From NCBI GenBank assembly GCA_942493035.1, contig OW818666.1, positions 3,028,702 to 3,092,701 on the forward strand: DNA of 64,000 nt. The letters run 5' to 3'. Shown in pieces: positions 4,017 through 38,185 of the stretch. The position numbers and the translations under genes were made by a program. Source of the DNA: an uncultured Spirochaetota bacterium (GTDB taxonomy: Bacteria > Spirochaetota > UBA4802 > UBA5550). The notes beneath the pieces are model-generated. The model ran no database searches and was not told the origin of the DNA. It worked only from the letters and a program-made list of their open reading frames with translations. Each line of letters begins with the position of its first letter. The stretch's first letter is position 1.

Positions 4017-4571
4017 ATGAAACCTTCGTATAACATCCATATCGGCGAATACTACGCGAGCAAGACTCCGGCAATTATTACAACAATTCTCGGCCCATGC
4101 GTGGCAGTGTGCATCTATGATAAGACAAAAATGATCGGCGGGATGAACCACATCCTTATGCCTGGAGATGCCCCTGACAGAGAAAATATAATCGACTCAC
4201 GATATGGCATAAATGCCATGGAACTTCTGATTAACCAGATGATGAAACTCGGCGCCAACAGATATAAACTTACAGCAAAAGTTTTCGGAGGAGCAGCAAT
4301 ACTCTCCTCTATTTCCGGCGAATTCAACATGGGTATAAGAAATGTTGAATCGGTAATACAATTTCTTGAGATAGAAAAAATTCCTATTATCAATTATAAT
4401 TTCGGAGGATTTGATTCCAGAAGAATTTACTATCACTCCGACACCGGTGAGGTTCTGATAAAAAGAATCAAATCAAGAGAAGCACTTACTGAAGACTCAG
4501 TTGTCCGGGAAAGACGGCTTGAGGCTGAAAAAAGAATTAAGAAAACACCGTCAGTTATATTTTTCGACTGA
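4017..4571 (+). CDS. cheD: CheD-like chemoreceptor glutamine deamidase, paralog 1.
   Basis: The ILGPCVAVCIYD and GGMNHILMPGD motifs match the CheD catalytic Cys/His region. RBS-like AGGAAAAAG precedes the ATG. ~70% identical to the ORF at 32014-32568. Confidence 0.8.
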   Translation: MKPSYNIHIGEYYASKTPAIITTILGPCVAVCIYDKTKMIGGMNHILMPGDAPDRENIIDSRYGINAMELLINQMMKLGANRYKLTAKVFGGAAILSSISGEFNMGIRNVESVIQFLEIEKIPIINYNFGGFDSRRIYYHSDTGEVLIKRIKSREALTEDSVVRERRLEAEKRIKKTPSVIFFD

Positions 4572-4575
4572 TTTT

Positions 4576-4621
4576 GCAGAACCTCCCCATCGCCATGTGG
4601 AGAGGGGGCCGGGTGATGAGG
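4576..4621. terminator. GC-rich hairpin between convergent cheD-like gene and kinase gene. Candidate bidirectional terminator and member of the CTCCCC...GGAGAGGG repeat family.
   Basis: CCTCCCCATCGCCATGTGGAGAGGGGGCCGGGTGATGAGG lies between stop codons at 4571 and 4622. Similar modules occur at 8041-8075 and 27521-27560. Confidence 0.4.
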
Positions 4622-6682
4622 TCACACTTCAAACTCCAGAATAATTATCGTTCCCTCTCCCCGTTCAACTTTTACACTTCCTCCAACCTGATCAACAAGC
4701 ATATTTACAAGATCAAGTCCAAATCCCTTTGATTTTTCAGATTCTAATGATTCCGGAATTCCGACTCCGTTATCCCGTACCCGTATAGTAAAAATTTTAT
4801 CTTTTTTATAGGCAGTTACACTTATTACACCTTCATCCCTTCCTATGAATGCATGCTTCATAATATTTGTAAGTAATTCGTTTATAATTATCCCCAGAGG
4901 TGTAAGAATCTGAATATTTAGTATAAAATCTTCAATGTCTGTTTCAATCTGTATTCCGATTCTGCCGGGAAAGCTCCCCACGACCTCTGCGGTAAGCGGC
5001 TGAAGATAATCTTTAACAGATAACTCTCTATAATTATCTGTACAGTAGAGTCTGTCATAAAGCATTATCATGCTCTGCACGCGCCGTTCAGCATCGCGGA
5101 GTGATTCCTCAGCTGATTGATTCTCTTCAGCGGATATCTGCAGTGTAAGAAGACCCTTGATAGTGTTCATGTTGTTCTTAATACGGTGGTGTACTTCACT
5201 AAGAAGAAGTTCCTTCTCAGCAAGAAGAGTGCGGACTCTCTCTTCAGAAAGTCTGCTCTCGGTAATATCGCGGACAAAAATTGAAACACCGACTATTTCA
5301 TTATTGTTATAGATAGGATTATATAAAATCTCGTGGAACAAGCGGTTGATGTCGTTAGTCTCCCGGACAACAGTATATGATTCACCCGACATAGCGCGAT
5401 CAATATTCAGTTTGGCAATTTCCCTCTCATCCTCCGGAATTATGAAGTCCAGTGCGTTCTGCCCCGTGGCAATCTCTTTCCCGTATCTCCGCTTAATGTC
5501 GTCAGAATAAGTTTTATTAAAATAAAGATACCTGTAATTTTTATCAACAGACAGGATAATCAGACCTGCCGGGCTCTCCAGACTCGACTTCAATAGCATC
5601 TGCGCCTTTTCCAGTTCCTGATTGGTAGATGTAAGCTCCTCATTGGTTGCAACCTGCTCCTCGTATGTAGCATCTAGCTCTTCTACGGCAGCGATAAGAT
5701 CTTCATTTTTATTTCGTAAACGTGCTTCACTCTCACGCAGTGCCGCCTCACTTAATCTTAAATCATCCAGCGCATGTCTTAGAGTTAATGTTCTGATCAG
5801 TATCTTTTTTTTAAGCTGTTTATTCCACAAAAATACAAATCCCGAAACAGCAAATAACAGTATCATAAATGCAGCCGCAAATTTGAATTCGCGGCTCTCC
5901 ATAAAACTGACAGTATGAAGACTGATCCATTTGCGGTAAATTTTGTCCCGCTCAGACTGTGATATAGCCGCAAGCCCCTTAGTCAGAATGCTGTTCAGCT
6001 GCGGCCAGTCCTTTCGCGACCCGATAGCAAGCCGTATGGGGTAACCGGCATCACCGGATATCTGAATATTAGAAATACCCTCCTTCTCGGTTAGATAGGA
6101 TGCAGTTGCAAGATCTATAACAGCCGCATCGGAGATTCGATATGATACATTAAGAATTGCGTTAAGATCCGAAGATACAATGTCGCTTTTAATCTGAGGA
6201 TGATTCTTTTTTATAAATTCTGTTATAGCATATCCCTGAACAAGTGAAACTCTTTTTCCGGCAAGTTCGCTGAGAGATAAATTGCTCATTGAATCTTTCC
6301 GGACAAGAATAACATTTTTAATTTCCACTATAGGCTCAGTGAATAACAGATATTCACTCCGCTCGGGAGTTTTTGTCGCAGCGTTAACAATTGAAACTTT
6401 TCTATCTTTTGCAAGTGAAAGGATCTCATCAAAAGATGATGCCTTAACTATATTAAAACTGATTCCGAGTTTCTTCTCTATAAGTTTTATATAATCATGA
6501 GCCAGACCTCTGGTTGTTCCAGCTTTGTCATCGTAAAATTCAAAAGGTGCATAAAACGGATCCGGAGCAAAATAGATCTCATTCTTATGGTTATCGAGCC
6601 ACTCCTCCTCGGCAGGATCGAGAACTACCTGTTTTGCGTTATATGATTTATCACATGACATCAGCAGAAACGCCGATAACAT
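4622..6682 (-). CDS. Sensor histidine kinase: signal peptide, periplasmic SBP_bac_3-like solute-binding domain, TM helix, NEEL-heptad coiled coil, PAS, HisKA_2 and HATPase.
   Basis: N-terminal solute-binding-like region (KTPERSEYLLFTEP). TM segment FAAAFMILLFAVSGFVFLW. Coiled-coil heptads NEDLIAAVEELDATYEEQVATNEELTSTNQELE. H-box EVHHRIKNNMNTIKGLL. N-box NELLTNIMKHAF. G-box DNGVGIP...GFGLDLV. Confidence 0.85.
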   Translation of the reverse strand: MLSAFLLMSCDKSYNAKQVVLDPAEEEWLDNHKNEIYFAPDPFYAPFEFYDDKAGTTRGLAHDYIKLIEKKLGISFNIVKASSFDEILSLAKDRKVSIVNAATKTPERSEYLLFTEPIVEIKNVILVRKDSMSNLSLSELAGKRVSLVQGYAITEFIKKNHPQIKSDIVSSDLNAILNVSYRISDAAVIDLATASYLTEKEGISNIQISGDAGYPIRLAIGSRKDWPQLNSILTKGLAAISQSERDKIYRKWISLHTVSFMESREFKFAAAFMILLFAVSGFVFLWNKQLKKKILIRTLTLRHALDDLRLSEAALRESEARLRNKNEDLIAAVEELDATYEEQVATNEELTSTNQELEKAQMLLKSSLESPAGLIILSVDKNYRYLYFNKTYSDDIKRRYGKEIATGQNALDFIIPEDEREIAKLNIDRAMSGESYTVVRETNDINRLFHEILYNPIYNNNEIVGVSIFVRDITESRLSEERVRTLLAEKELLLSEVHHRIKNNMNTIKGLLTLQISAEENQSAEESLRDAERRVQSMIMLYDRLYCTDNYRELSVKDYLQPLTAEVVGSFPGRIGIQIETDIEDFILNIQILTPLGIIINELLTNIMKHAFIGRDEGVISVTAYKKDKIFTIRVRDNGVGIPESLESEKSKGFGLDLVNMLVDQVGGSVKVERGEGTIIILEFEV

Positions 6683-6782
6683 AAGTATTAAAAAATTATT
6701 TTTAAATTTTATAACAGCCCCCCTCCACTCTCTTGTGTGTATAAAGATTCATCGGATTTTAAAATTACAGAATGTGTTTCCT

Positions 6783-6853
6783 GTAGAGACGCAGCATTCT
6801 GCGTCTCTACTAAATCCTATAATCCCTTAATCTGCTTAATCCTAATTCAGACA
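6783..6853. repeat. Partial copy of the TGTCTGAAT foldback element family. A 28-bp perfect palindrome is followed by the conserved right arm AAATCCTATAATCCCTTAATCTGCTTAATCCTAATTCAGACA.
   Basis: GTAGAGACGCAGCATTCTGCGTCTCTAC palindrome at 6783-6810. The right-arm TIR supplies the V-stop (GTCTGA) of the kinase gene ending at 6847. Confidence 0.6.
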
Positions 6854-8007
6854 TCCTCAAATTCCAGCAAAAACTTTGTCCCTTCGCCCCGCTCAATCTT
6901 TATACTTCCGTTCAGCTGCTCCGTAAGCATACCTACAAGCTGCATTCCAAAACCGGTTGAGTTTTCAAATGTAATCCCTTCAGGGATCCCTGCACCATTA
7001 TCTGCAATTGTTATTAAAATTATATTTCCCGCTTTTGATGCGGTTACGCTTATAACACCATCGCTGCGGCCTGTAAAGGCATATTTCATTGCGTTGGTTA
7101 TAATTTCATTCACAAGTATTCCCAGTATTGAAAGAATCTTGGCCTCAAGAACAATGTCATCAATTCCGGTTTTGATTTTAACAGATTTTTTTAGAGGAAA
7201 AATTCCTACAATTTCATAAATAAGATCGGGGAAGTATTCTTTAAGAGATACAGACGCTGTATGTTCCGAACGGTACAATTTGTCATACAGTACGCTCATG
7301 CTCTGCACCCTCCCCGCAGCATCAAAGAGCACATTTTTTGCGGCTTCATCAGTCCGGGCGTTTGCCTGCATGTTCAGCAGAGCTCCGATGTTATACATAT
7401 TATTTTTAACACGATGATGGACCTCTTTCAGAATAAGCTCTTTCTCATTCAGCAGATTATACACAGTCTCCTCTGCGAGTTTCCGATCGGTTATATCTAC
7501 AGCATTTATGTAGCATTTTTTTTCATTTGAGGAGATCACACCTTCAATATGAATAAAAGATTTAATATCATTTTCAATTTTCAGTCTTACTTCGCAGATC
7601 TGTCTTAAACCGGTTTTAAAGATCTTGTCCATAAAGTCATCGAATTCAGGGAGAGTCTCCGGCGATACAAATGATCTGAACTTGCTGTTTACCAGATCAG
7701 AACGATCACTTCCAAGCATTCCTGCACCGCTACGGTTCATCTCGTAAATTGTACTGTCGGGATTAAGAGTGAAATATCCCATTGCCGCATATTCATAAAA
7801 CGCGTTGAACTTCTCTGCAGCAGCAGCTGCGATATCCCTTTCGGAGAGTACTTCCTCATTTATAAGTTCAAGCTCAATATTTTTCAACTCTAGCCCGGTT
7901 ATAATTTTTTCAATCTCTGGAGCGGTTAAAGAGGATATATTAACATGATCTTTCTTTTTATAAAGCTCTTCTGCTTTTTTAATGAATAATTTATCATCTG
8001 ATTTCAT
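6847..8007 (-). CDS. Cytoplasmic PAS - HisKA_2 - HATPase sensor histidine kinase.
   Basis: 386 aa. H-box EVHHRVKNNMYNI. N-box NEIITNAMKYAF. G-box DNGAGIP...GFGMQLV. No TM segment. Confidence 0.85.
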   Translation of the reverse strand: MKSDDKLFIKKAEELYKKKDHVNISSLTAPEIEKIITGLELKNIELELINEEVLSERDIAAAAAEKFNAFYEYAAMGYFTLNPDSTIYEMNRSGAGMLGSDRSDLVNSKFRSFVSPETLPEFDDFMDKIFKTGLRQICEVRLKIENDIKSFIHIEGVISSNEKKCYINAVDITDRKLAEETVYNLLNEKELILKEVHHRVKNNMYNIGALLNMQANARTDEAAKNVLFDAAGRVQSMSVLYDKLYRSEHTASVSLKEYFPDLIYEIVGIFPLKKSVKIKTGIDDIVLEAKILSILGILVNEIITNAMKYAFTGRSDGVISVTASKAGNIILITIADNGAGIPEGITFENSTGFGMQLVGMLTEQLNGSIKIERGEGTKFLLEFEDV

Positions 8008-8086
8008 ATCATTACCTTTTTGAATTTACTATTTGTCTTCCTTCTCCTCCCCATGTAGAGAAGGAATGAGGTCACGCATCCCATTT

Positions 8087-8215
8087 TGTCTGAATTAGGA
8101 TTTATAGGATTAGCGGATTAAAGGATTTCCATGAAACTGTAGGCTCGTAGCGCGCTACGAGCCTACAGTTTCTAAATCCTATAATCCTCTAATCTGCTTA
8201 ATCCTAATTCAGACA
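8087..8215. repeat. Complete foldback (MITE-like) element. Terminal inverted repeats TGTCTGAATTAGGATT / AATCCTAATTCAGACA with internal TAATCC-type subrepeats and a central 40-bp perfect palindrome (8133-8172).
   Basis: Left arm TGTCTGAATTAGGATTTATAGGATTAGCGGATTAAAGGATTT and right arm are near-reverse-complements. Centre GAAACTGTAGGCTCGTAGCGCGCTACGAGCCTACAGTTTC is perfectly palindromic. The right TIR supplies GTCTGA (Val-stop) of the 8209-11223 kinase. Confidence 0.7.
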
Positions 8216-11200
8216 GCTTCAAACTCCAGCACAAACCTCGTCCCTTCGCCACGTTCAATCCTTATACTCCCGCCGATCTGCCCGGTAAGCATACCTGCAA
8301 GCTGCATTCCGAAACCTGTTGAGTTTTCAAAAGTTACCGACGCGGGAAGACCCGCTCCGTTGTCTCCGTAAATCACTGTAACCACATTCTCTTTTCTTTT
8401 TGCAGATATGCTTATAATTCCACTCTCTTTATCATTGAAGGCATACTTTATAGAATTGGTTATAAACTCGTTTATAATAATCCCGACAGGAGAGAGCATC
8501 TTTGAATTTAATATAAAATCCTCAATGTCAACTTCCGCTTTTATAAAAGCGCGATAAGAAAATAACCCAAGCACTTCACTGATCAAGGGTTCAAGAAAAT
8601 CCTTAATACTCATTTCATTATAATTATCCGACCGGTAGAGTTTATCATAAAGTATCATCATCTTTTTTATACGAAGAGCTGAATCATGAAGTATAGCCTT
8701 ACACTCCTCATCCTTCATTGCATCGGACTGCAGTGTGAGCAGACCGTAGATTGTATTCATATTGTTTTTTACCCGGTGATGGGTCTCTTTGAGAAGTATC
8801 TCTTTTTCACGAAAAAGTAATTTTATTTCATCTTCCACCATTTTCCGTTCAGTAATATCTTCTGCAACACCTTCAAGCCAGTCCTTATCCTTAATATGTT
8901 TTGCCGAGAGACGTATCCATATTATAGATCCATCCTTTCTCCAGAAACGGGCTTCAAAATTAAAAATCTCCCTGTTTTGCTTAAGAAGCGAAATCATTCT
9001 TTTTCTCTCTTCTTTATCAACATACTGTTCAGCTATATTATAATTTACCGCAAGAATAGATTCTCTATTTTCATATCCGGCAAAGCGTGCGAGTGTATCG
9101 TTTGCGTCAAGCATCAGCCCCGATTCAACCTCGGATCTGAACAGCCCTATCTGTGAATTGAGGAAAAGATTTCTATATGTTTCCTCCGCAATTTTGAGAG
9201 CCTCTTCCGCACACTTCAGTTCCGTGATTTCACGAAAGCTTGCAATCCCCCCGACAAGCTGTCCGGAACTGTTGAAGAGAGGAGCTGCATTAACCGACAG
9301 CCATTTTCTTTCACCATCCTTTGCTGCAATCTGATGCTGAAGATCTACTACAATGCGCTGTTCTTTCAAAGCAACAGCAAGTGGAAGCTTGTCTTCAGGA
9401 TATGGATTCCCATATCCATCAATCTGCATCCACTCACGGCTCTGATAATATTTCCCAAGAATATCTTTGCCAATACCAAGAATTGTCTGGGCCGCCTGGT
9501 TTGAGTAAGTGATTTGACCGTTAAGATCAACAGTTACCATGCCATCGACCATTGTCTGCAGCATCGTCTCCAGTTTATTTTCAGATTTCAGAAGCGCATC
9601 CTCGGCCTGCTTCCGCTCGGTTATATCAAGAACAACACCAATCAGACCTGTAATATTTCCGGAGACATCTTTAATACTCCCTTTGTGAAAGACAACATCA
9701 CGGAGCTCCCCCCTGGCATTCTTCACCTGTGATTCGTATACCTGAATTCCCGCCTTTTCAAAAAGCACCGAATCCTGTTTATGATAAATTTCCGCAAGTT
9801 CAAGGGGATTAACATCAAAAACATTTTTACCTATGAGATCCTCTTTTTTCGCCCCGAAAAAAGCTTCAAATGCCTGATTAAATCCGGTATAACGCCCCTG
9901 AAGATCTTTATAAAAAACCGGCACCGGTAAAGACTGAAGTAAAAGACTTAGTGACAGTTCACTCCCCTTCAACGCATCTTCAGTCATCTTCCTTTCAGAA
10001 ATATCAATACCGACTCCAGTGAAATACGTTTTGCCGTCGATAGTAAGTTTTACACCATTAGAGCGAATAAGAAGTTTACCTCCACCCTTTATAAGCAGAT
10101 TTGCCTCTACCTCGCCATAACCGGTCCTGAATACTTCATCTACTGCTGCAGCCACTCTTACTGCATCTTCACCTTCAAACCAGTCCGACATATTCATATG
10201 AGATAACTCTTCCGCTGAATAGCCGGTCATAGTTTCATGTTTCTTATTCCATCGTATAAGGTTGCCATTTTCATCATAGACATAGAGATAACCGGGAATA
10301 CTTTCAAGAAGAGCTTCTATAAAAATCTTTTCACTAAGAATAGCTCTATCCTTTGCCAGAAGATCCTCATTAACTGCTATAAGCTCCTCATTCGCGGCCT
10401 CCATCTCCTCCATGGCGGCGTTCAGCTCTTCATTAGCTGCTTCAAACTCTTCAGTTTTATTTTTAATTTCCACCTCCGCGCGTTTACGTTCGGTGATGTC
10501 GCGAACTATAGCAAGAACCTCCTCATCATCAAGCTTTGCTATTCGAAGATCATATATATGCGGCTCATTATCAATATCCAGTGTATATATATAATTCTGG
10601 ATGTCCCCTGTCTCAATACACTTCCGGAAAAGAGCAAGAAGCTTCTGAACTTCATCGGCCGAAAACAGTACATTTATATTATTACCGATAATTACTTCAG
10701 AAGGTAATGCAAGAGAATCAGAATCTGAACTTCCGGAAAAATCTTTGAAAAATCCCTTACTATCCACAACAAACATCATGTCAGGAATCGTCCGTAGAAT
10801 TGTCTGACTTCGCAGAGATTCCTTTCTCGCCTCTTCGTGAGAGTTGTACAGATCAAACGCCATCTCCATAGACGATTGAAGAACAAAATCGCCGGAGCTC
10901 TTTACCACATAGCCGTAGCGGGTTATATTACGCACCTTCTCCACCATCTCGCGTTCAGAGTGTGATGTATGAAAGACTATAGGTATATTTTTTTCTGCAA
11001 GTATCTGACGGGCAGCCTCTGTGCCGTCAATGCCTTCTCCAAGGTTTATATCCATTAGAATAAGATCAATTTTTTCAACGCCTTCTGTAATCTCAACAGC
11101 CTTTTCACCTGAAGTCGCAGTAATAACTTTATAGCCGAATCTCTGCAGAGCTTTAGAAACTACAATCCCGATTATTGCTTCATCTTCAACGAGAAGTATC

Positions 11201-11223
11201 GTCTTTTGATTTTCATAATTCAT
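8209..11223 (-). CDS. Hybrid sensor kinase: N-terminal receiver, multiple PAS domains, NEEL coiled coil, HisKA_2 and HATPase.
   Basis: 1004 aa. N-terminus MNYENQKTILLVEDEAII...LILMDINLGEGIDGTEAA. Heptads EEFEAANEELNAAMEEMEAANEELIAVNEDL. Several DITERK PAS linkers. H-box ETHHRVKNNMNTIYGLL. G-box DNGAGLP...GFGMQLAG. Confidence 0.85.
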   Translation of the reverse strand: MNYENQKTILLVEDEAIIGIVVSKALQRFGYKVITATSGEKAVEITEGVEKIDLILMDINLGEGIDGTEAARQILAEKNIPIVFHTSHSEREMVEKVRNITRYGYVVKSSGDFVLQSSMEMAFDLYNSHEEARKESLRSQTILRTIPDMMFVVDSKGFFKDFSGSSDSDSLALPSEVIIGNNINVLFSADEVQKLLALFRKCIETGDIQNYIYTLDIDNEPHIYDLRIAKLDDEEVLAIVRDITERKRAEVEIKNKTEEFEAANEELNAAMEEMEAANEELIAVNEDLLAKDRAILSEKIFIEALLESIPGYLYVYDENGNLIRWNKKHETMTGYSAEELSHMNMSDWFEGEDAVRVAAAVDEVFRTGYGEVEANLLIKGGGKLLIRSNGVKLTIDGKTYFTGVGIDISERKMTEDALKGSELSLSLLLQSLPVPVFYKDLQGRYTGFNQAFEAFFGAKKEDLIGKNVFDVNPLELAEIYHKQDSVLFEKAGIQVYESQVKNARGELRDVVFHKGSIKDVSGNITGLIGVVLDITERKQAEDALLKSENKLETMLQTMVDGMVTVDLNGQITYSNQAAQTILGIGKDILGKYYQSREWMQIDGYGNPYPEDKLPLAVALKEQRIVVDLQHQIAAKDGERKWLSVNAAPLFNSSGQLVGGIASFREITELKCAEEALKIAEETYRNLFLNSQIGLFRSEVESGLMLDANDTLARFAGYENRESILAVNYNIAEQYVDKEERKRMISLLKQNREIFNFEARFWRKDGSIIWIRLSAKHIKDKDWLEGVAEDITERKMVEDEIKLLFREKEILLKETHHRVKNNMNTIYGLLTLQSDAMKDEECKAILHDSALRIKKMMILYDKLYRSDNYNEMSIKDFLEPLISEVLGLFSYRAFIKAEVDIEDFILNSKMLSPVGIIINEFITNSIKYAFNDKESGIISISAKRKENVVTVIYGDNGAGLPASVTFENSTGFGMQLAGMLTGQIGGSIRIERGEGTRFVLEFEAV

Positions 11224-11262
11224 AGTCTAACTTCCCTGTGCAGCTGATCTTTTAATCCTGAT

Positions 11263-12675: not shown

Positions 12676-12796
12676 CAGTATCTCTCCACTGCATTAAAAC
12701 TATAATCATCTGACTTTCTCAAAAAAAATATCCGTCAAAGCGGTTATGACCGGATTATTATAAATCGTTTTTAATATATTCATCAAAAATCCCGTT

Positions 12797-14074: not shown

Positions 14075-14499
14075 ATCTTCACTATCTGAATAAAAAGTCC
14101 CAGCCGTTTTAAAGTCTCTGTAAACTTTATAAAATCAACAGGCTTGGTGATATACATATTACATCCAAGTTTATAACATTCCTCCACTTCACGCGGATCA
14201 TCAGTAGTTGTCAGCATCATAACCGGGATCTCTTTCAATTCAGGGTTCACTTTCAGTCTTCTTAAAACTTCAAGACCATCCATTTTCGGCATATTAAGAT
14301 CAAGAAGTAAAAGATAACTCTTACTTTTGTCTCTTTCACTTTGTCCGGTTCCGGATAAAAAGCCCCAAACCTCTTCACCATTAGTGAAGCGGATAGTTTT
14401 ATTACAAACTCCTGCATCCGCAAGTCCGTCTTTAATCAACTCGGCATGTCCGTCATCATCTTCCGCGATTAGAATTATCATCTCTTTATAATCCGTCAT
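14071..14499 (-). CDS. Single-domain CheY-like response regulator.
   Basis: 142 aa. IILIAEDDDGHAELI, LLLLDLNMPKMDGLEVL and KPVD. Four-bp ATGA overlap with the downstream GGDEF gene. Confidence 0.8.
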   Translation of the reverse strand: MTDYKEMIILIAEDDDGHAELIKDGLADAGVCNKTIRFTNGEEVWGFLSGTGQSERDKSKSYLLLLDLNMPKMDGLEVLRRLKVNPELKEIPVMMLTTTDDPREVEECYKLGCNMYITKPVDFIKFTETLKRLGLFIQIVKI

Positions 14500-20964: not shown

Positions 20965-21002
20965 GAAAAACTCCTTGTACCAAAAAATTCTCTCTATCCT
21001 TT

Positions 21003-21106
21003 TGTCTGAATCAGGATTCATAGGATTTAAAGATTAAAGGATGCGGTAAAATAAAACCCTCTCTAAATCCTATAATCCCTTAATATGCTTAATCCTGATT
21101 CAGACA
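21003..21106. repeat. Foldback element copy with both TIRs: TGTCTGAATCAGGATTCATAGGATTT ... AATCCTGATTCAGACA.
   Basis: The arms are reverse-complementary and flank ATGCGGTAAAATAAAACCCTCTC. The right TIR provides the stop codon (GTCTGA) of the 21100-24774 kinase. The left TIR creates a spurious upstream ATG for the 19369 gene. Confidence 0.65.
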
Positions 21107-27364: not shown

Positions 27365-27520
27365 AATGACGTGCTCCCGTATAACTAAACATATAGACCT
27401 CACCCGCTTGCTGCGCACCCTCTCCTCAATGAGAGGTTTTCCGTATTCTAAACTTTCCGCTGCATTAACAAAATAAACCTGTAAAAAATATTTCTTCCAA
27501 ACACAACAGCCCTGTTACAA

Positions 27521-30500: not shown

Positions 30501-31472
30501 TTCTATGTCAGGGAAAATCTCATGAACTGTCTTACCTTGAACTTCATCATTTTTTAACCCGGTTATCCTCTCATAGGCTTCATTGATATAGATATAACGG
30601 AAACTGATAAACTCACCGGTTTCATTAAAAACAGATTCATATGAAACAAATGCATTTATCATTCTTTTAATAATCAGCTCTAAATTTTTCTGACTTACAG
30701 CAAGGGCATCTTCGGCAAACTTCCGCTCGGTATTATCAGAGAGAATACAGTGCGTCTGCTTAAAGCTTCCATCCTCCTGGTATCCAACTCTCCCCTCGAA
30801 AGCAATATATCTTCTGCTGCCATTTTTATGCATCATCTGAAATTCAGAGTGTATCTTTCCCTGTGCTTTAAATATAGGAAACCTTTCACGGAATGCTTCA
30901 ACGTATTCCGATGCGAGAAAATCTCCAAACCATCTCCCCGCAACCTCCTCTCTGCTGTATCCTAGAGTCTCAAGCCATTTCTGATTAACCTCAAGAAAAC
31001 AGCCATTCTCATCAAGAGACTGATAACCCAGGGGTGCCCTGTCAAACATGGAATAAAAATGCTCCTCACTCGCCTTAATTTTCTTATTTGCTTCAACAAG
31101 CTCAAAAGCCATCTCAATGGAAGATTGCAGAACGAAATCTCCGGAACTCTTTATGACATAACCGTAACGCGTAATACCGCGGACACGATCCACCATCTCC
31201 CGCTCGGAATGAGAAGTATGAAAGACTATGGGAATATCACGTCTGGCAAGAATCTGTTTTGCAGCCTCTGTCCCGTCTATTCCATTCCCCAGATCTATAT
31301 CCATAAGAATAAGATTTATATTCCCGTTTAAAGTGGAGAGCTCCACAGCTTTTTCACCTGAACCAGCAGTTAAAACATTGTAGCCAAACCTCTTTAAAGT
31401 CTTGGTAATAACAATGGAAATTATAGCCTCATCCTCAACAAGGAGAATGGTTTTATTTGTGTCATTATTCAT
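27561..31472 (-). CDS. Large hybrid kinase: receiver, multiple PAS, long NEEL coiled coil, GAF, HisKA_2 and HATPase.
   Basis: Start placed at ATG 31472 (MNNDTNKTILLVEDEAII; AAGGA SD 9 nt upstream). The longer ORF reaches 31523. Heptads NEELETLNEELNATIEEMEATNEELTAAMEEMEATNEELISTNERL. GAF-like region LIGLIAVIGRDK. H-box EVHHRIKNNMSTINGLL. Confidence 0.85.
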   Translation of the reverse strand: MNNDTNKTILLVEDEAIISIVITKTLKRFGYNVLTAGSGEKAVELSTLNGNINLILMDIDLGNGIDGTEAAKQILARRDIPIVFHTSHSEREMVDRVRGITRYGYVIKSSGDFVLQSSIEMAFELVEANKKIKASEEHFYSMFDRAPLGYQSLDENGCFLEVNQKWLETLGYSREEVAGRWFGDFLASEYVEAFRERFPIFKAQGKIHSEFQMMHKNGSRRYIAFEGRVGYQEDGSFKQTHCILSDNTERKFAEDALAVSQKNLELIIKRMINAFVSYESVFNETGEFISFRYIYINEAYERITGLKNDEVQGKTVHEIFPDIEDSWISKCRDVVITGEASSFEMFNISTNKIYHCNVYRPGEGKDRFCVIFEDITERKRSEEEIKSKNEELETLNEELNATIEEMEATNEELTAAMEEMEATNEELISTNERLIVSEREVEKSEEKFRGMFFQHHAVMLLIDPVSGYIIDANHSAELFYGYEPDHFRRMKIQDINVLSSDEIAEEMQRAKDDKRTHFVFPHRLANSEIRTVEVYSSPVTINENKLLFSIIHDITDRSGMDRKLSESMEQFRSLAESSTDYIMVYDKEKRHIYANNATLKVSNTTWDEFIGRTHRELGYDPAQCELWEEKIQKVFDTGKAQMEVFEWEGADGKVTLDWRVTPIFAGDGQVDRVLGVSRDISDLKRAEEKTKISEDRFSSALAAVDDGIWDWHVPDGKAYFSEQYYKTLGYTDNEFPANYNSWRVLVHPEDIDRVETDLKKSTDSGLKFNIDLRMKMKSGEWLWVCIRGKAVETDSEGKALRMVGTLSDVTLRKKAEFELRESRKNLNRIIENSSELICEIDENGRYTFVSERYKDVLGYSPDELLGRNTIEQMYPDDIESARLKFLELKSENGISVDEWRFRHKKGSYHTFECRSSVYQYDDGRQRMVVFSHDITESRQIEKTQMFLIMGSSGSSGGDDFFQSLARYLAETLKMDFVCIDKLVGGGLSARTVAVYFDGEFEDNIEYTLNDTPCGVVAGKTICTFETNVRVLFPKDIVLQEMKAESYAGVTLWGSNGEPIGLIAVIGRDKMENPRLAESILKMVAIRAAGELERRDAEEKIRSLLLEKDILLKEVHHRIKNNMSTINGLLALQSESLTDAVAVDALKDAQSRVQSMMVLYDKLYRTENINEVSLREYLPGLVSEIADNFPKNKNVKIESQIDDFDLHVQTLVPVGIIVNELITNMMKYAFIGRDGGSINVSAVLKGCKAVMIIEDDGVGIPETVKFENSSGFGMQLVGMLTEQIDGNIRIERGNGTRFVLEFEV

Positions 31473-31549
31473 TATTGAAGGTCCTTTTCGATATAAAAGA
31501 ATATATTTTTCAATATAACACATTTATCATAAATAAACAACTCAATTCA

Positions 31550-31595: not shown

Positions 31596-31940
31596 GAAAT
31601 CTGCCACCCCGCCCCCACTGTCGCTCCCCCTCTGGCCTCTGGCCATCTCCCCCCTGGTGAAAGGGTGGAGAAAAACGCGGAATGTTTCGTATATTTGTTG
31701 AGACGCAGCATGCTGCGTATCTACAAATATACGTACACCTTTCACCATCTTACCATGGGGAAAGGTGCCTGGCGGGCGGATAGGGGCAGGGCGCCGAAAA
31801 AACACAAAACATTCCGAACTACCCTTTCACCATCTCACCATGGGCGACGAACAGGATGTTCTAGTGTCGAGTGCGTGCAGGACGCACAAATTGCACTCGA
31901 CGAAAGGTGCCCGGCGGGCGGATAGGGGCGAGGCGGGCCA
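31596..31940. repeat. Composite GC-rich REP-like repeat cluster in the divergent intergenic region between the kinase and cheD paralog 2.
   Basis: Contains CATCTCCCCCCTGGTGAAAGGGTGGAG, the ACGCAGCATGCTGCGT palindrome and three CACCATGGGG-GAAAGGTGCC units. Ends GGTGCCCGGCGGGCGGATAGGGGCGAGGCGGG. One unit carries the 36-nt bulged hairpin at 31865-31900. Confidence 0.65.
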
Positions 31941-32013
31941 CAAAAATTCTTATTGCATTAATCGCTGATTTTATCTATATTATAACTGCTACATAAAACT
32001 ATCAGAGAATAAG

Positions 32014-32568
32014 ATGAAACCCACAGTAAATATACATATTGGCGATTACTACTCCAGCAGAACACCCGTTGTTATAACTACAGTCCTGGGGCCATGCGCA
32101 GCAGTCTGCCTTTATGACGCGGATAATAAAATAGGAGGGATGAATCATATACTTCTTCCGGGAGATTGCCCCGCCGAAATGGGTGATGGTGATTCCAGAT
32201 ATGGTATAAATGCCATGGAACTTCTGATAAATCAGATGATGAAACTCGGAGCTAACCGCTACAAACTCACTGCAAAAATATTCGGAGGGGCGTCCATTCT
32301 CTCCACAGTATCTTCCGAGTTCTGCATGGGGATGAGAAATATCGAATTTGTAGTGGATTTTCTGTTAACAGAAAAAATACCAATACTCAACTACAATTTC
32401 GGAGGAGTAGACTCCCGGAGAATATTCTACCACACCGACACAAGCGACGTGCTTCTAAAAAGAATAAAATCAAGAGAAGCAATCAACGAATTTGCCCATG
32501 TCCAGCAGAGACGGCTCGACTTAGAGAAGAGGATAAAGAAGTCATCGAAAATTGTTTACTTTGACTGA
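32014..32568 (+). CDS. cheD: CheD-like chemoreceptor glutamine deamidase, paralog 2.
   Basis: VLGPCAAVCLYD and GGMNHILLPGD motifs. ~70% identical to the 4017-4571 product, with the same C-terminal extension KRIKSREA...RRL.LEKRIKK. Confidence 0.8.
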   Translation: MKPTVNIHIGDYYSSRTPVVITTVLGPCAAVCLYDADNKIGGMNHILLPGDCPAEMGDGDSRYGINAMELLINQMMKLGANRYKLTAKIFGGASILSTVSSEFCMGMRNIEFVVDFLLTEKIPILNYNFGGVDSRRIFYHTDTSDVLLKRIKSREAINEFAHVQQRRLDLEKRIKKSSKIVYFD

Positions 32569-32580
32569 GGAAGATAGAGA

Positions 32581-32760: not shown

Positions 32761-32764
32761 AGAT

Positions 32765-35700
32765 TCACACCCCCACAGAAAAAACAATCTCCACTCTGGT
32801 ACCACTCTTTTTAGAAATACTAACAGTCCCGCCAATCTGCTCCGCAAGTGCAGAAACCAGATTAAGTCCAAAACCTCCGGACCCTGATGCTATTACTTCA
32901 TCGGAGACACCGGCACCATCATCACTGATACATAAAGTTACATTATCATTCTCTTTCTTAATAGAGACTTTTATAATACCCTCTCTTCCATCTGGAAATG
33001 CATACTTAAACGCATTGGTAATAAGTTCATTTATGGCAATACCAACCGGGAAAATCGTCTTTGTATCCAGTATAAAATCATCAATCTCTTTTATAATGGT
33101 AATCTGTCGGGCATTTTCAAAAATAAGAAATATCTCATCTATAAACTTTTCAAAATATTCTTTAATATGCATCTTGCGGTAATCTTCAGATCTGTAAAGT
33201 TTATCATACATAAGCATCATGCTCTGAACACGGCTCCGTGCATCGTTAAGAGCAGTTATCGCAGCAGCATCACTCATAGAAGCTGCCTGGAGCATCAGCA
33301 GACCTGAAATTGTATTCATATTATTTTTAATCCGGTGATGTACTTCACTAAGAAGAAGCTCCTTCTCTTTAAGAAGAGAGTTTATCGTTTCAAAAGATTT
33401 TCTGCTTTCAGAAACATCCCTGCTGAAGACTGCAATACTTACAACTTCACCGGCACTGTTTTTAATAGGGTAAATATGACTATCGAGAGATAAGCCCCCC
33501 CTTTCATCCGAAATAACAAGCGGCTGACCTGCGCTGATAACCTCTTTTATTTTTTCAAGTCTCGAAGCTGCAAGCCCGGGTGAAAAATAACTGAACATAT
33601 TCGATCCGATCATCTGATCGACACTTACCCCAAACCTGTCAGAAAGAGTTTGGTTCGCCTCAAGAACAATACCATCAGGTGTCATAAGAAAAACACCGTC
33701 AGTAGTCGAGTTCATAAGCGCTTTAAGTTTTGATTCTGATTCACGGAGCTTCTCTTCAATCATCCTTTTCTGGATTACAGCCTGAATATTTGACATGAAT
33801 ATTTTAAGATTAATCCTCTCATTATCACTGTAACCATTTTTAGAGTTTGCAACAGCAGCAACGGACTTTATCCGGCCGTTAACAAAAACAGGGATGACCA
33901 TCAGGTTCTCCACTTTAACATGCCCAGAAGGCAGGCCCTTTTTTGCCGGATTATCCGCGCTGTAATCATTTATAATTATATCTTCACGTAACCTCACAGC
34001 TTCAGCCCAGATACCGCATTCACTTATTTGATACTGCTGCGGCTTCTGATCCATCATGCAATCTTTCATAGCCTCGCCCGACCATGAGTATATAGTCATA
34101 GCTTTTTCATCGTCATTTATAAAACCGTAAAAACCATACCTGCTGTCTGTTATACGGACAATTGTAGCAAGAATATTATCACAAATAGTTTTAATATCAT
34201 CATCTGCATGTTTTGCCACATTCCAAAGATCATCAAGCCTGGCAAGCGCGGTTTCAGTCTCCATACGGTCGATCTTCTGTTCAGTAATATCCCTGTTGCT
34301 CCCTCTCCGGCCTGCAAAATTTCCGGCATTATCATAAACAGCACGGCAGGTGTGCCCTATCCATTTTACAGATCCGTCTCTGGTGGTAATTCTGAATTCA
34401 GTTTCATTCTCTTCGGGGAACTGATGGACTTCATTATTTTTAAAACACGGACTATTACAATCATCAGGGAAAACTAAACTGCGGAATAATAATTGATCGT
34501 TTACAAACTCATCCTTTGTGTATCCTGTAATTCTTTCACATGACGGCGAGCAGTAGATCATACGTCCGTCAGTCCCGATCCAGAACTCCCAGTCATATGG
34601 AAAATCCGCTATCGTTCTATATTTTTCATAATCGGCAGCAATCCTTTTTTCAAGTTTTCTTTTTTCAGTAATATCCTTTCCCATCACAAGCACAGCCGGA
34701 CCATCAGGAAGAGTTATCGGGAAAGAAGCCGATTCCGTCAGGCAGCCTGTTCCATCAGGTCTCACAAAAGTTAACTCAATGGGAGGATTAGCATCACCTG
34801 TCATTGCCCGCTTTTCTCTTTTTTTTATTTCAAGCATATCCTTTTGTGATAATGTATCTGCTACATCTTTTCCAATAACATCTCCCGGCATTTTAAATCC
34901 CAGTATTTCTGCTCCTGCAATGTTCGCAAAAATATACTTCCCATTCCTTAAAAGCAGTAATAAATCCGGATTTTTATCCACGATAAGACGGTATCTCGTT
35001 TCGCTCTCTTCAAGTTCCTTCATCATCAGCTTTTCTGATAATGCGATTGCAATATTATTTCCAAAATGTTCAAACAGGTTTATAAGTTTTTCAGTGAACA
35101 TCCCTTTCCGTTTATCATTAAGCTGAATTGTACCGAATGTTTTACCGCCCGTCCGGAGAGGGATCAGAGCCACAGATTCGTAACCCATCCCATTACACCT
35201 GTTCCTTGTTCTGGCCTGTCTGTCTTCATCGGTTGTGGACTTGAGAAGATCCGTTGTACAATTTGACCAGAAACTCCCCTGTCCGGTAAAAAACGGCTTC
35301 GATGGATCAAACCTGCCTCTTATAATATTGCCGCACATGCACTCAATAACAGGATTACCAATGTCATCCCGCAGAAGCTGACCATTAATATCATAAGCAC
35401 AGAGTGAATTTTCCAGTTTAACAAACTCCCGGGAAAAACCATCTGTTTCAAAATAGGGATAATCATCCCCCTCTTTAAGACGTATACCTACGGCCTCACA
35501 GCCTGACCAGTTTTTCAAAAATATGATAACCGACTTCATAAAATCATGAAGATCACTATCGGCATTAATAATACTCAAAAGATCAATAATAGCTCTTCTC
35601 TCATCATCGACCACTCTTCTTTCAGTCATATCCCTGCTTATTCCAAGCAATGATGTAATTTCGCCGTTTTTATAAAGTGGAGTCTTAACCGTATCAAAAT

Positions 35701-38185
35701 AATGAACCATACCGTTTATAACAGCGGATTCATTCTCTACAATTACCTTTTCACCAGCCAGAGCTCGAAGATCATCCTGCTCCCATCCCCTAATTCCTTT
35801 CTGAATATTACCCTTAACATTATCTTCGCCCCATCCGGCTTCAATATCACTCAATCCTATGAGCTCCCGTGGTTTCTTATTCATTGCCAATGCATATGTT
35901 TTGTTACAGAGAATGAGCTTGAGATCAGTGCCCTTAACGAAGATATAGTCAGGTGAGGAGTTGATTATATTCAGCAGCATCTCTTCGCTATCCTTCAATG
36001 CAGTCTCGGCAACTTTTCGTTCTGTAATATCCGCTATTACGCTGTCATATTCTATAAGATTTTTATCATCGTCATAATGAGGAACCGGTGTGTTCCTTAC
36101 CCATGCCATTGAACCGTCACGGCAGATAATACGATGCTCAATAGGAGAGAATACACCTCTATTCATAATATCAGAAGCAAAGAGTACCACTCTCCCTCTG
36201 TCATCGGGATAGATCATCTTATACCACAGCTCCGGATCTGCAGCAAAGTCTTCAGGAGTGTAACCGGTAACAGCTTCACACCCCGGACCATGTACAGTCC
36301 TTACAGGAGATTTATTTTCGATAAAAACCGTGTAAATATATCCGACTACCGATTCAAAGAGCCGTTTATACCTGACATCTCTCTCGATTAAAAGTTCTTC
36401 AGCTTTTTTCCGTCCTGTTATATCTTCAAATATTGTAGCAAAATAGCCTCTCTCGGGGGAGTATGCGGTAACCTTAAACCACTTGTTCAGCTGACGTGAA
36501 AAATTTTCAATAGTAAGACGTACTCCGGTAAAGGCCACCTGACCATAAGTTGCAATCCAGTAAGGTTCAATATCCGGAATAAGCTCGGTAACTCTTTTAC
36601 CGATTATCACTTCCGGATCAAGTCCTGTATAGCTTTCAAAAGCCGGGTTCACTTCAAGAAAAACATAATCAACGGGATTACCCCAGTCATCGACAATAAT
36701 CTCATGAAGAGCAAAACCATCGATCATACTCTCAAATAGTTCTCTATACTGTTTGTTTTTCTTATTCAGTTTTTTCTCGGCAATCTTCTTCTCAGTAATA
36801 TCCCTCGCGCCTAAAACCGCACCGGTAACAACACCATTCTCACCGGAAATATTGCGCCCTGTAACCTCAAACCACCTGTAACTCCCGTCTTTATGCCTCT
36901 GTTTTAACTCAACAGAACCCTCACCCTTAATGCACATACCGGTTATATTTTTTACATCCAGCTCTCTATTCTCCGGATGAATTATATCACCAGCCCATGT
37001 ACCTAAAAGCTCCTCCTGCCTGTATCCTAAAACTCTCTCAAATGAAGGTGAAACATACTTGTAGAAACCATCAGTATCAAGACGCGCCACAAGATCGGCC
37101 ATATATTCAGTAACATCACTAAGCCTCTCCTCGCTCTCTTTGTGGAGATTGGAATAGCGGTCACGTTCCGACAATGTTTTAGCGAGTTTAATATTGCTGT
37201 AGCTGAGTTTTGAAATTATATTCAGAAGTTTAATATAAAAAGTCATAGCAGTAAAAATTTCATCTCTGCCATACCGCGGAACAGACTCCATGGAATTAAT
37301 AAATTCCGCTTCATCAAATCCGAACCGGCTTGCTTGAGAACGGGAAAAATCATAATCAATAACGTCATCGTCAAACATAAACTGACCCAGAAAAAGATTA
37401 CCGGCTGTCTTTCCGCCAATCTCAATAGGGGTAGCCATCTCCCACATGTTATTCCTGCATTTAACAAGCTTATAAGAACCGGGAATAATTCCCTCAACAT
37501 CTTCAGTGTTGCTCTCAATGCAATTTCTGCATGATTCAGGATTCGCCCTGAAAAATTTCCTGCATATACCATTATAACCTGTTGAAGCAATAACTTCACC
37601 ATTATTGTCAACTATACCAACACTGACACCGGTCATTATGTTAAAATCCTCAAGAATCGATTGAAGCATACTGGTATCAATAATATCTGTAAACTCCAGA
37701 ATACCAATATCCCCTTCAGGCGAGAGAATACTGTCCAGTTTCAGCCTCACCCTCTCCTCGCTGATGCGGAGTGACTGAGCAGAAATCTTCAGCCGTTCAT
37801 GGGAATCAAAAAGTTCAAATGCCATCTCAATGGAAGAGAGAAGAACAAAATCACCGGAGTTTTTTATAACATAACCGTAACGGGTAATCTCTTTAACAGT
37901 TTCAACAACACTCTGCTCGGAGTGAGAGGTGAGAAAAACGATTGGAATATTATTATTCAACAGAATCTGCCGCGCCGCTTCAGGGCCGTTAATACCGGAA
38001 CCTAAATCAATATCCATAAGAATAAGATCAATCGAAGAGTCTTTCCCGGCTGTTTCTACCGCTTTTTTGCCATTATTAACAGTAATAACTTCATATCCGC
38101 GGCCTTTCAGCATTTTAGCTGTTACCATTGAAATAATGGCTTCATCCTCAACAAGGAGAAGTTTTTTACCCCTTACCCTATCCAT
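32765..38185 (-). CDS. Giant hybrid kinase (1806 aa): receiver, a Cys-containing PocR-like sensory domain, many PAS and at least 2 GAF domains, HisKA_2 and HATPase.
   Basis: N-terminus MDRVRGKKLLLVEDEAII...LILMDIDLGSGINGPEAA. Cys motif GICRKFFRANPESCRNCIES. Repeated DITE(K/R)K PAS linkers. GAF-like segments (KSVAAVANSKNGYSDNE). H-box EVHHRIKNNMNTISGLL. G-box DDGAGVS...GFGLNLV. Confidence 0.85.
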   Translation of the reverse strand: MDRVRGKKLLLVEDEAIISMVTAKMLKGRGYEVITVNNGKKAVETAGKDSSIDLILMDIDLGSGINGPEAARQILLNNNIPIVFLTSHSEQSVVETVKEITRYGYVIKNSGDFVLLSSIEMAFELFDSHERLKISAQSLRISEERVRLKLDSILSPEGDIGILEFTDIIDTSMLQSILEDFNIMTGVSVGIVDNNGEVIASTGYNGICRKFFRANPESCRNCIESNTEDVEGIIPGSYKLVKCRNNMWEMATPIEIGGKTAGNLFLGQFMFDDDVIDYDFSRSQASRFGFDEAEFINSMESVPRYGRDEIFTAMTFYIKLLNIISKLSYSNIKLAKTLSERDRYSNLHKESEERLSDVTEYMADLVARLDTDGFYKYVSPSFERVLGYRQEELLGTWAGDIIHPENRELDVKNITGMCIKGEGSVELKQRHKDGSYRWFEVTGRNISGENGVVTGAVLGARDITEKKIAEKKLNKKNKQYRELFESMIDGFALHEIIVDDWGNPVDYVFLEVNPAFESYTGLDPEVIIGKRVTELIPDIEPYWIATYGQVAFTGVRLTIENFSRQLNKWFKVTAYSPERGYFATIFEDITGRKKAEELLIERDVRYKRLFESVVGYIYTVFIENKSPVRTVHGPGCEAVTGYTPEDFAADPELWYKMIYPDDRGRVVLFASDIMNRGVFSPIEHRIICRDGSMAWVRNTPVPHYDDDKNLIEYDSVIADITERKVAETALKDSEEMLLNIINSSPDYIFVKGTDLKLILCNKTYALAMNKKPRELIGLSDIEAGWGEDNVKGNIQKGIRGWEQDDLRALAGEKVIVENESAVINGMVHYFDTVKTPLYKNGEITSLLGISRDMTERRVVDDERRAIIDLLSIINADSDLHDFMKSVIIFLKNWSGCEAVGIRLKEGDDYPYFETDGFSREFVKLENSLCAYDINGQLLRDDIGNPVIECMCGNIIRGRFDPSKPFFTGQGSFWSNCTTDLLKSTTDEDRQARTRNRCNGMGYESVALIPLRTGGKTFGTIQLNDKRKGMFTEKLINLFEHFGNNIAIALSEKLMMKELEESETRYRLIVDKNPDLLLLLRNGKYIFANIAGAEILGFKMPGDVIGKDVADTLSQKDMLEIKKREKRAMTGDANPPIELTFVRPDGTGCLTESASFPITLPDGPAVLVMGKDITEKRKLEKRIAADYEKYRTIADFPYDWEFWIGTDGRMIYCSPSCERITGYTKDEFVNDQLLFRSLVFPDDCNSPCFKNNEVHQFPEENETEFRITTRDGSVKWIGHTCRAVYDNAGNFAGRRGSNRDITEQKIDRMETETALARLDDLWNVAKHADDDIKTICDNILATIVRITDSRYGFYGFINDDEKAMTIYSWSGEAMKDCMMDQKPQQYQISECGIWAEAVRLREDIIINDYSADNPAKKGLPSGHVKVENLMVIPVFVNGRIKSVAAVANSKNGYSDNERINLKIFMSNIQAVIQKRMIEEKLRESESKLKALMNSTTDGVFLMTPDGIVLEANQTLSDRFGVSVDQMIGSNMFSYFSPGLAASRLEKIKEVISAGQPLVISDERGGLSLDSHIYPIKNSAGEVVSIAVFSRDVSESRKSFETINSLLKEKELLLSEVHHRIKNNMNTISGLLMLQAASMSDAAAITALNDARSRVQSMMLMYDKLYRSEDYRKMHIKEYFEKFIDEIFLIFENARQITIIKEIDDFILDTKTIFPVGIAINELITNAFKYAFPDGREGIIKVSIKKENDNVTLCISDDGAGVSDEVIASGSGGFGLNLVSALAEQIGGTVSISKKSGTRVEIVFSVGV

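Follow-up and report, generated by a model that had tools for sequence, protein, structure and literature searches.

The cheD genes and the kinase array

The stretch of DNA analysed here (referred to as the window; 64 kb with a G+C content of 39.7%, positions 3,028,702 to 3,092,701 of contig OW818666.1 in assembly GCA_942493035.1 of an uncultured Spirochaetota bacterium) carries two paralogous genes of the chemotaxis enzyme family CheD. Both are located on the plus strand and encode 184 amino acids, with cheD-1 (paralog D1) at 4017–4571 and cheD-2 (paralog D2) at 32014–32568, the latter arising from an old duplication and delimiting an array of sensor kinase genes on its far side. According to Pfam, nearly all genes between and around the two are involved in signal transduction and run on the minus strand. 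A first-pass annotation of the window had read the pair as orphan genes of a receptor-free adaptation module, in which CheD-type enzymes modify or bind the neighbouring kinases directly.

The same annotation had pointed to a shared local layout, and the Pfam assignments of the neighbours bear this out, since each cheD gene is divergent from a receiver or receiver/kinase gene and convergent with a PAS-HisKA_2 kinase gene. Specifically, cheD-1 is divergent from a single-domain REC gene (3334–3702) and a REC-HATPase_c gene (2057–3298), and convergent with an SBP_bac_3-PAS-HisKA_2 kinase gene (4622–6682). Likewise, cheD-2 is divergent from a gene encoding a REC-PAS-HisKA_2 kinase of 1320 amino acids (27561–31523), and convergent with one encoding a REC-PocR-PAS-GAF-HisKA_2 kinase of 1806 amino acids (32765–38185; referred to as the PocR kinase). 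The REC-HATPase_c protein (413 amino acids) has no HisKA or DHp domain recognisable with Pfam. Next to it, a REC-GAF-PAS-PAS sensor open reading frame (ORF; 1–1926) is cut by the left edge of the window, leaving 642 amino acids visible. All of these neighbours are on the minus strand.

The stretch following cheD-1 contains 11 genes, nine of which encode PAS-rich kinases (HisKA_2 type in eight cases, classical HisKA type in one) and two of which form a REC/REC-PAS-GGDEF pair. Apart from the kinase genes that adjoin cheD-1 and cheD-2, these encode a PAS-HisKA_2 kinase (6847–8007), a REC-PAS(x5)-HisKA_2 kinase (8209–11223), a REC-PAS-HisKA_2 kinase (11263–12675), the REC pair at 12797–14499 (REC-PAS-GGDEF at 12797–14074 and REC at 14071–14499, overlapping by 4 nt), a PAS-rich classical HisKA/HATPase_c kinase (14762–17680), a 5TMR-LYT-PAS-HisKA_2 membrane kinase (19369–21021), a REC-PAS-GAF-HisKA_2 kinase (21100–24774) and an SBP_bac_3-PAS-HisKA_2 kinase (24971–27418), all on the minus strand. 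The GGDEF-containing pair looks like a diguanylate cyclase unit, placing a c-di-GMP output within the kinase array. The run of kinases is interrupted by an IS110-family transposase gene (DEDD_Tnp_IS110 and Transposase_20; 17996–19069), which is the sole plus-strand gene in the array besides the two cheD genes.

Sequence, fold and conservation of the CheD paralogs

Both proteins scored well with the Pfam CheD model PF03975 (89.5 bits for CheD-1 and 86 bits for CheD-2, against a cut-off of 25), and they are identical at 127 of 184 residues over their full length (69%). All nine NCBIfam matches were CheD models, each scoring below its own equivalog cut-off (at best 164.9 versus 223). When aligned with the CheD protein of Thermotoga maritima, the sole CheD with a solved structure (PDB 2f9z chain C, with LGSCVAVC and AHVMLP motifs; E 2e-23), not only Cys28 and His45 but also Thr22 and Thr23, upstream of the Cys, found their counterparts. 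In an alignment of 32 homologs, C28, H45 and about 30 further positions were invariant, and C28 and H45 are present in both paralogs. The AlphaFold2 model of CheD-1 (pLDDT 82.9, pTM 0.73) features an additional C-terminal helix (residues 154–176), and a Foldseek search with this model yielded 2f9z_C as top PDB match (TM 0.82, E 1.5e-15), with NTAN1, YfiH and CNF ranking next, an order of relatedness as expected for the amidohydrolase superfamily. The Pfam scores, the aligned Cys and His and the fold match thus indicate that both genes encode bona fide and intact CheD-family Cys/His amidohydrolases, in agreement with the earlier description of two cheD-like genes of about 70% identity with preserved catalytic residues. 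As the C-terminal helix also occurs in operon-encoded CheDs of Desulfobacterota, it is not particular to the kinase setting.

In a neighbour-joining tree, the CheD sequences of the window and its relatives (the contigs and genomes of which are referred to by L numbers) fell into a D1 clade (window, L091, L004 and L001) and a D2 clade (window, L012, L007, L010, L095 and L096, together with many metagenome sequences). As the two clades are separate, the duplication is placed before the divergence of the genomes compared. Both copies are intact ORFs of 184 codons in every genome, and the ratio of nonsynonymous to synonymous substitution rates (dN/dS) was 0.03–0.08 for cheD-1 and 0.04–0.06 for cheD-2 against their orthologs (0.03–0.06 for the least saturated pairs), indicating strong purifying selection on both. 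A search for paralog-specific substitutions at clade-conserved positions revealed only V29A as specific to D2 with respect to operon CheDs, and three mild clade-specific changes in D1. With V29A as its sole fixed change, D2 offers no support for neofunctionalisation or a new specificity. In relatives, too, D1 and D2 flank the kinase array, at a distance of 18.6 kb (Ga0071346_1000566) or about 47 kb (GCA_964450405.1), compared to 28 kb in the window.

Both cheD genes appear to be monocistronic. Alignment of their upstream regions (3853–4016 and 31850–32013) with those of the orthologs in six relatives revealed an A-rich tract followed by a sigma70-like motif, TTATTGAA-N17-TAnAnT, in which the first box reads TTATTG(A/C)A and is separated by approximately 17 nt from TAnAnT. 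This suggests that the two paralogs are transcribed independently and similarly from a sigma70-type promoter. A scan for consensus promoters and terminators around cheD-1 was uninformative, with counts at or below shuffle expectation, and no sigma28-type motif was evident by eye in the upstream alignment, for which no dedicated search was made.

A chemosensory cluster beyond the left edge in relatives

Neither Pfam nor a phmmer search of all ORFs of 50 amino acids or more, with reference Che proteins as queries, revealed CheA, CheW, CheR, CheB or a methyl-accepting chemotaxis protein (MCP) in the 64-kb window, just as the first-pass annotation had stated. The closest CheD proteins are those of Spirochaetota metagenome-assembled genomes (91% identity for HGW-Spirochaetae-5 and 82% for an "uncultured Leptospirales"), and a scan of genome contigs for CheD gave best matches of 82% and 70%. 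The L091 contig, the CheD of which is 91% identical, is collinear with window positions 1–8828 at 74–81% nucleotide identity: its positions 4001–7681 correspond to 1–3645 (81%), 8165–11069 to 3949–6832, and 11156–13103 to 6847–8828. The sensor ORF cut by the window edge aligns with L091 4001–5926 (81% nucleotide identity), and past the equivalent of window base 1 L091 continues with the end of this kinase gene and then, at 0.2–4 kb, genes for a deacetylase and a GNAT protein, cheW, a short cheR (201 amino acids, lacking CheR_N) and a gene for an ODP-like protein with metallo-beta-lactamase fold. In L091 coordinates, the last three lie 2.4–4 kb out, starting with cheW at approximately 2.4 kb.

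More distant relatives carry the remainder of this cluster. In L093 (on the same contig as L001; CheD 79% identical) and L094 (on the same contig as L004 and L007; CheD 82% identical), cheD is followed by the gene for a CheY-like receiver, two to three kinase genes and then a che cluster in the order CheW, short CheR, ODP, MCP (one or two copies), CheR, CheB, CheW, CheY, STAS and CheA. In L002, where CheD is 56% identical, the same operon is directly divergent from cheD with no kinase genes in between, and FliM/FliG/FliN-like genes are located on the other side. The MCPs of these clusters in L093, L094 and L002 contain SANEQSAS, SVEEVSSSMEEMNSS and ATEEMASTTEELLSQ, which are standard methylation heptads including a Glu-Gln pair. 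With che clusters located past the edge in syntenic relatives, the apparent orphan status of the window cheDs is best read as an effect of the window edge combined with lineage-specific intercalation of kinases, and the absence of che genes from a window should not be mistaken for their absence from the genome. Neither did the proposed receptor-free module find support in this comparison: in the relatives with 91%, 82% and 79% CheD identity, a chemosensory cluster with MCPs, CheA, CheW, CheR and CheB has cheD-1 at its distal end, the nearest CheD outgroups reside in canonical che operons, and a consensus site with Gln is present in the cluster MCPs.

Several further features of these clusters were observed. 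The adjacent genes for CheW, short CheR without CheR_N and the ODP-like protein (L091 458–1568, L093 8135–9877 and L094 4634–6551) lie next to an MCP gene. Between cheW and the kinase genes of L091 (1920–3034), the gene for the GNAT-like acetyltransferase is accompanied by one of the histone-deacetylase family, which could bear on acetylation of CheY-like proteins, and L094 has a Transposase_31 gene at the junction of array and che cluster. The REC-HATPase_c gene is conserved as well, its product measuring 413 amino acids in L091 (in the same position as in the window), 418 in L001 and 412 in L004, yet it is found on differing sides of cheD-1.

The minus-strand receiver gene next to cheD-1 (3334–3702) also links this gene to the che cluster and speaks against its stand-alone status. 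Against the operon CheY of L002, its product scored 114 bits, equal to operon CheYs of other phyla, while other receivers of the window scored 25–40 bits. It retains Asp57, Thr87, Lys109 and Trp106, although the acidic Mg2+-binding pair (D12/D13 in Escherichia coli) is replaced by F,E (it reads D,E in L091 and L004, and G,G in L093). The best NCBIfam match was CheY, with a score of 70 versus a cut-off of 189. Lacking the acidic pair and scoring under this cut-off, the protein would be a CheY-like paralog rather than CheY. A CheY-like receiver gene also adjoins cheD-1 in L091, L001 and L004, so that this protein has the appearance of a degenerating or pseudo-receiver CheY paralog conserved beside CheD.

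In a broader survey of CheD homologs, a che core gene was present within 10 kb in 62 of 80 genome loci, and cheD was stand-alone in the other 18, many of them from Spirochaetota. The CheD homologs of about 50% identity (from Desulfobacterota, Lentisphaerota and others) are encoded within CheY-CheA-MCP-CheW-CheR-CheD-CheB operons, some of which include short CheR and ODP genes. According to this survey, spirochaetes usually have cheD apart from the core operon; that of Borrelia burgdorferi, too, is a stand-alone gene. The association of CheD with HisKA_2 kinases, as put forward earlier, proved to be conserved in placement among the relatives of the window, but none of 78 genome loci outside the lineage combined CheD with a nearby HisKA_2 kinase or with the type of coiled coil described below.

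Methylation-type heptads in the kinases

CheD reportedly recognises the consensus [AS]xx[EQ][EQ]xx[AS], which is essentially the classical MCP methylation consensus Glx-Glx-x-x-Ala-Ser/Thr. Among 17 window proteins, this motif was found 18 times, always in exact 7-residue steps and within coiled coils that are referred to as NEEL coils. These coils comprise six segments in five kinases, each consisting of two to four consecutive heptads with the consensus x-E-E-[L/M]-x-[A/S]-[A/T], resulting in three to five sites per kinase, and all five kinases have HisKA_2 and HATPase_c in the same polypeptide. One of them is the kinase convergent with cheD-1 (coil at residues 317–365, DNA 5588–5734; sites at residues 331, 338 and 345). 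The others are the kinases encoded at 8209–11223 (residues 248–296, DNA 10336–10482; sites 262, 269 and 276), at 21100–24774 (two coils, at residues 127–168, DNA 24271–24396, and 674–722, DNA 22609–22755; sites 141, 148, 688, 695 and 702), at 24971–27418 (residues 311–359, DNA 26342–26488; sites 325, 332 and 339) and, divergent from cheD-2, at 27561–31523, with the longest coil (residues 404–459, DNA 30147–30314; sites 418, 425, 432 and 439), which contains TAAMEEMEATNEEL.

Neither a NEEL coil nor a motif site is present in the kinases encoded at 6847–8007, 11263–12675 and 19369–21021. The convergent partner of cheD-2, the PocR kinase, has no NEEL coil either. The PocR kinase was also considered as a CheD target in its own right, and was rejected since neither it nor its three orthologs contain a single consensus site.

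The occurrence of at least two [AS]xx[EQ][EQ]xx[AS] sites exactly 7 residues apart served as a detector. Applied as a control to the 78 CheD-homolog loci of other genomes, this detector flagged ORFs in 31, and among the matches listed all that were cross-checked proved to be MCPs. The window coils are furthermore matched by a coil in a 1003-amino-acid CheB-CheR-(NEEL x6)-PAS fusion protein of L007 (GCA_964450405.1; 5215–8226), in which it follows the CheR domain (independent E-values of 6e-7 to 6e-6, the latter for the kinase at 21100–24774). The reported resemblance of the coils to the linkers of CheB/CheR-PAS fusions (E of approximately 1e-6) and to MCP heptads (by the detector) was thereby corroborated. 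The fusion protein, which has no kinase domain, was seen in this genome only, where it is inserted together with a REC gene and a PAS protein gene between cheD-2 and the usual NEEL kinase gene.

All 33 NEEL consensus sites in the lineage read Glu-Glu and none contains Gln, whereas 29 of 91 heptad-spaced sites (32%) in MCPs beside CheD in other genomes do. The last heptad of some coils is N-Q-E-L (for example in the kinase convergent with cheD-1 and its L091 ortholog, and in L010 and L095); it misses the full consensus, and this position varies from coil to coil. With Glu-Glu at all 33 sites there would be no substrate for a deamidase, making it unlikely that CheD covalently modifies these kinases by deamidation, and leaving binding or demethylation as candidate activities.

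The NEEL kinases appear to correspond to an already described class, the methyl-accepting coiled-coil (MAC) kinases. This class was defined by Wuichet & Zhulin 2010, comprises proteins with a CheB/CheR fusion (MAC1) and proteins that merely occur together with CheB/CheR (MAC2), and figures in MiST3 (PMC6943060; bioRxiv 10.1101/2022.05.07.491037). The latter source also states that MAC proteins had never been characterised experimentally. The kinases of the window would hence be MAC-like and the L007 fusion protein MAC1-like, and the idea of kinases bearing a methyl-accepting coil is known already. A literature search returned nothing relevant on orphan CheD with histidine kinases, nor on the CheD consensus.

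Proteins encoded next to D2 across genomes

A NEEL-coil protein is encoded divergently from D2, by the adjacent gene or one of several, in six of six genomes. In the window, L012 and L096 this is a kinase of about 1300 amino acids (type b). L010 and L095 instead have a different kinase of approximately 765 amino acids (type a), which has no counterpart in the window and is inserted next to D2. In L007, D2 is divergent from genes for a REC protein, a PAS protein, the CheB-CheR-NEEL-PAS fusion and then a 1293-amino-acid kinase. However, about one third of the array kinases carry NEEL coils and the genomes are related, so that the presence of a coil beside D2 in all six is suggestive without being significant. 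Of all neighbours of D2, the PocR kinase is the most conserved, and it adjoins D2 in the window, L007, L010, L012 and L095 (five of six genomes). In L096, D2 is directly followed by Lsa36, Peptidase_C11, TPP-enzyme and GAF-HD genes, as are found after the array in the window.

Possible roles of the two CheD proteins

We consider it likely that both proteins have an accessory role in a neighbouring chemosensory cluster, which the intercalation of kinases (some of them MAC-like) has expanded, and that the MCPs of this cluster are their targets. Ancestrally, cheD would have been divergent from a che operon encoding short CheR, an ODP-like di-iron protein, MCP, CheR, CheB, CheW, CheY, STAS and CheA, after which PAS-HisKA_2 kinases may have become intercalated and amplified within the lineage, and the old duplication of CheD may have left the copies that now flank the kinase array. 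In the source genome, cheD-1 and the degenerate cheY paralog would then form the distal end of a che cluster that starts past the left edge, at a distance of approximately 2.5 kb. This combination of chemosensory and two-component genes into a supercluster seems typical of an uncultured Leptospirales-like spirochaete lineage, the closest named genome being that of Spirochaetae bacterium HGW-Spirochaetae-5. From knowledge of the family we infer that Cys28 and His45 of each CheD would act on [A/S]-x-x-[E/Q]-[E/Q]-x-x-[A/S] helical sites of the MCPs, where deamidation of the Glu-Gln pair, binding to the receptor so as to tune CheA, or both would take place. The NEEL kinases would more plausibly be substrates of CheR and CheB, or simply contain a coiled-coil linker, than be substrates of a deamidase.

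Several observations weigh against this interpretation. The che cluster of the source genome is placed by synteny only, cheD-2 is located 28 kb from cheD-1 and over 30 kb away from the presumed MCPs, and no gene for a CheC/CheX partner was seen in any locus inspected. In addition, a coil that fits the CheD recognition consensus is encoded divergently from D2 in each of the six genomes, and the interpretation gives no reason why D2, with its strong conservation, should have been kept on the other side of the array.

These last observations bear on the proposal that CheD, and most likely D2, is a partner of the MAC coils, on which it would act as Glu-methylester esterase or which it would bind allosterically, coupling receptor-type adaptation directly to two-component kinases. 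This is what remains of the first-pass annotation's idea once the receptor-free setting and deamidation are taken away, and we regard it as unlikely. The NEEL heptads do fit the consensus with exact 7-residue spacing, and were flagged by a detector whose matches beside CheD elsewhere were MCP helices wherever cross-checked. The coil-bearing gene divergent from D2 (in the window, L012, L010, L095 and L096, with the fusion gene occupying this place in L007) has been maintained despite two different kinase paralogs in that position, and D2 itself is strongly conserved. Moreover, T. maritima CheD reportedly combines deamidase with methylesterase activity and binds to a helix of CheC that mimics the receptor, and NCBIfam model NF041119 names CheD deamidase/methylesterase. 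However, Gln occurs at none of the 33 consensus sites, adjacency to a coil is partly expected when about a third of the kinases have one, and the six genomes, being of common descent, do not count as independent observations. The PocR kinase, as most conserved neighbour of D2, has no site, in L001 and L004 the kinases immediately beside cheD-1 have no NEEL coil, and the 78 loci outside the lineage showed no association of CheD with NEEL coils or HisKA_2 kinases. Finally, D2 shows no adaptive divergence from the CheDs of MCP operons, and MAC systems have been described with CheB and CheR, not with CheD. The more specific version, in which D2 was recruited to MAC-type kinases and recognises the all-Glu NEEL heptads of the divergent REC-PAS-HisKA_2 kinase as methylesterase or allosteric partner, seems about equally unlikely. 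If true, chemoreceptor-style covalent adaptation would be applied to two-component kinases inside a che supercluster, and D2 would be the first defined accessory enzyme for MAC proteins.

Alternatively, the paralogs might divide their labour, with D1 serving the adjacent ODP-MCP cluster and D2 serving other MCP classes, a second che pathway or a CheC/CheX-type phosphatase, and with the position at the array edge being merely historical. Spirochaetes normally also possess a flagellar F2-type che operon, and the CheD of Borrelia has been reported to modulate a CheC/CheX-type phosphatase. The old duplication with retention of both copies, the frequency of stand-alone cheD genes (18 of 80 loci, many in Spirochaetota) and the monocistronic organisation of each paralog behind its own sigma70-like promoter motif all agree with such a division, but D2 has stayed in the same supercluster in six of six genomes and never moved beside another che locus. 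We hold this possibility to be improbable as well. That the cheD genes are decaying remnants of a che operon invaded by kinases, which the loss of the acidic Mg2+ pocket in the adjacent CheY paralog (F,E in the window and G,G in L093) might suggest, is very hard to believe and was rejected in view of the dN/dS of 0.03–0.06, the intact 184-codon ORFs in every genome and the presence of all family-invariant residues.

With both proteins as probable accessory CheDs of the chemosensory cluster, the locus would be a conserved assembly of about 50–70 kb in which the two strongly conserved CheD paralogs are interleaved with the genes of a complete CheA/MCP pathway and with a dozen PAS-HisKA_2 kinases, many with MAC-type coils. 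Orphan CheDs in a receptor-free module would have amounted to a new logic of signalling, which the evidence does not bear out. Knowledge of MAC proteins from genomics dates back to 2010, and a locus that holds CheR, CheB and CheD alongside them is a reasonable place to ask whether their coils are methylated, and by which enzyme.

Other genes of the window

Beyond the PocR kinase gene, the window encodes a Lsa36-family lipoprotein of the Leptospira type (38546–39730), two clostripain-like Peptidase_C11 proteins (39848–41104 and 41471–43186) and an ankyrin-repeat protein (43413–43949). The lipoprotein gene is in keeping with the kinship to Spirochaetota genomes seen for CheD. The HGW-Spirochaetae-5 contig L012, although collinear otherwise, lacks the block from 38.3 to 43.5 kb, which also contains an unannotated ORF of 137 amino acids (in 38300–43500). 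Further on are genes for a phosphodiesterase of the GAF-HD-GYP type (47053–49128) and, on the minus strand, a toxin-antitoxin pair of HEPN and nucleotidyltransferase (MNT-type) proteins (52510–53255), a similar pair being present within the kinase array of L007 (4510–5128). The right end of the window is formed by parA, parB and genes for methionyl-tRNA synthetase (MetRS), a PSP1-domain protein and the delta' subunit of DNA polymerase III (57840–59478 on the plus strand and 60109–63930 on the minus strand). This housekeeping flank argues for a chromosomal location of the signalling island.

Comparison with known systems

The CheD proteins of the window belong to the same Pfam family as those of T. 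maritima (TM0903, 2f9z) and Bacillus subtilis, sharing their fold (TM 0.82), 34% identity and aligned catalytic motifs, and in the relatives of the window CheD is likewise encoded beside MCP, CheA, CheW, CheR and CheB. They differ in having a 30-residue C-terminal helix, and in being two conserved paralogs that are monocistronic and divergent from the cluster instead of located within an operon.

In the Treponema denticola systems, an ODP di-iron sensor is found with an MCP, and a CheW-CheR-like protein serves as S-adenosylmethionine sensor (PMC7666581, PMC10653840). The relatives of the window share with these the adjacent genes for CheW, short CheR, an ODP-like protein and an MCP, an arrangement that recalls both this sensor and the ODP oxygen/iron sensor. 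In contrast to the T. denticola CheW-CheR-like sensor, CheW and short CheR are encoded by separate genes here, all of which are located outside the window.

With the MAC class, the NEEL kinases have in common that they are sensor kinases with a coil of MCP-like methylation heptads. In relatives, genes for CheR, short CheR and CheB are present in the adjacent cluster, and L007 even has a CheB-CheR-NEEL-PAS fusion. Unlike the described MAC systems, which come with CheB and CheR and not with CheD, the window itself contains no CheB or CheR, and the MAC-like kinases are embedded in a CheA/MCP cluster rather than set apart from it.

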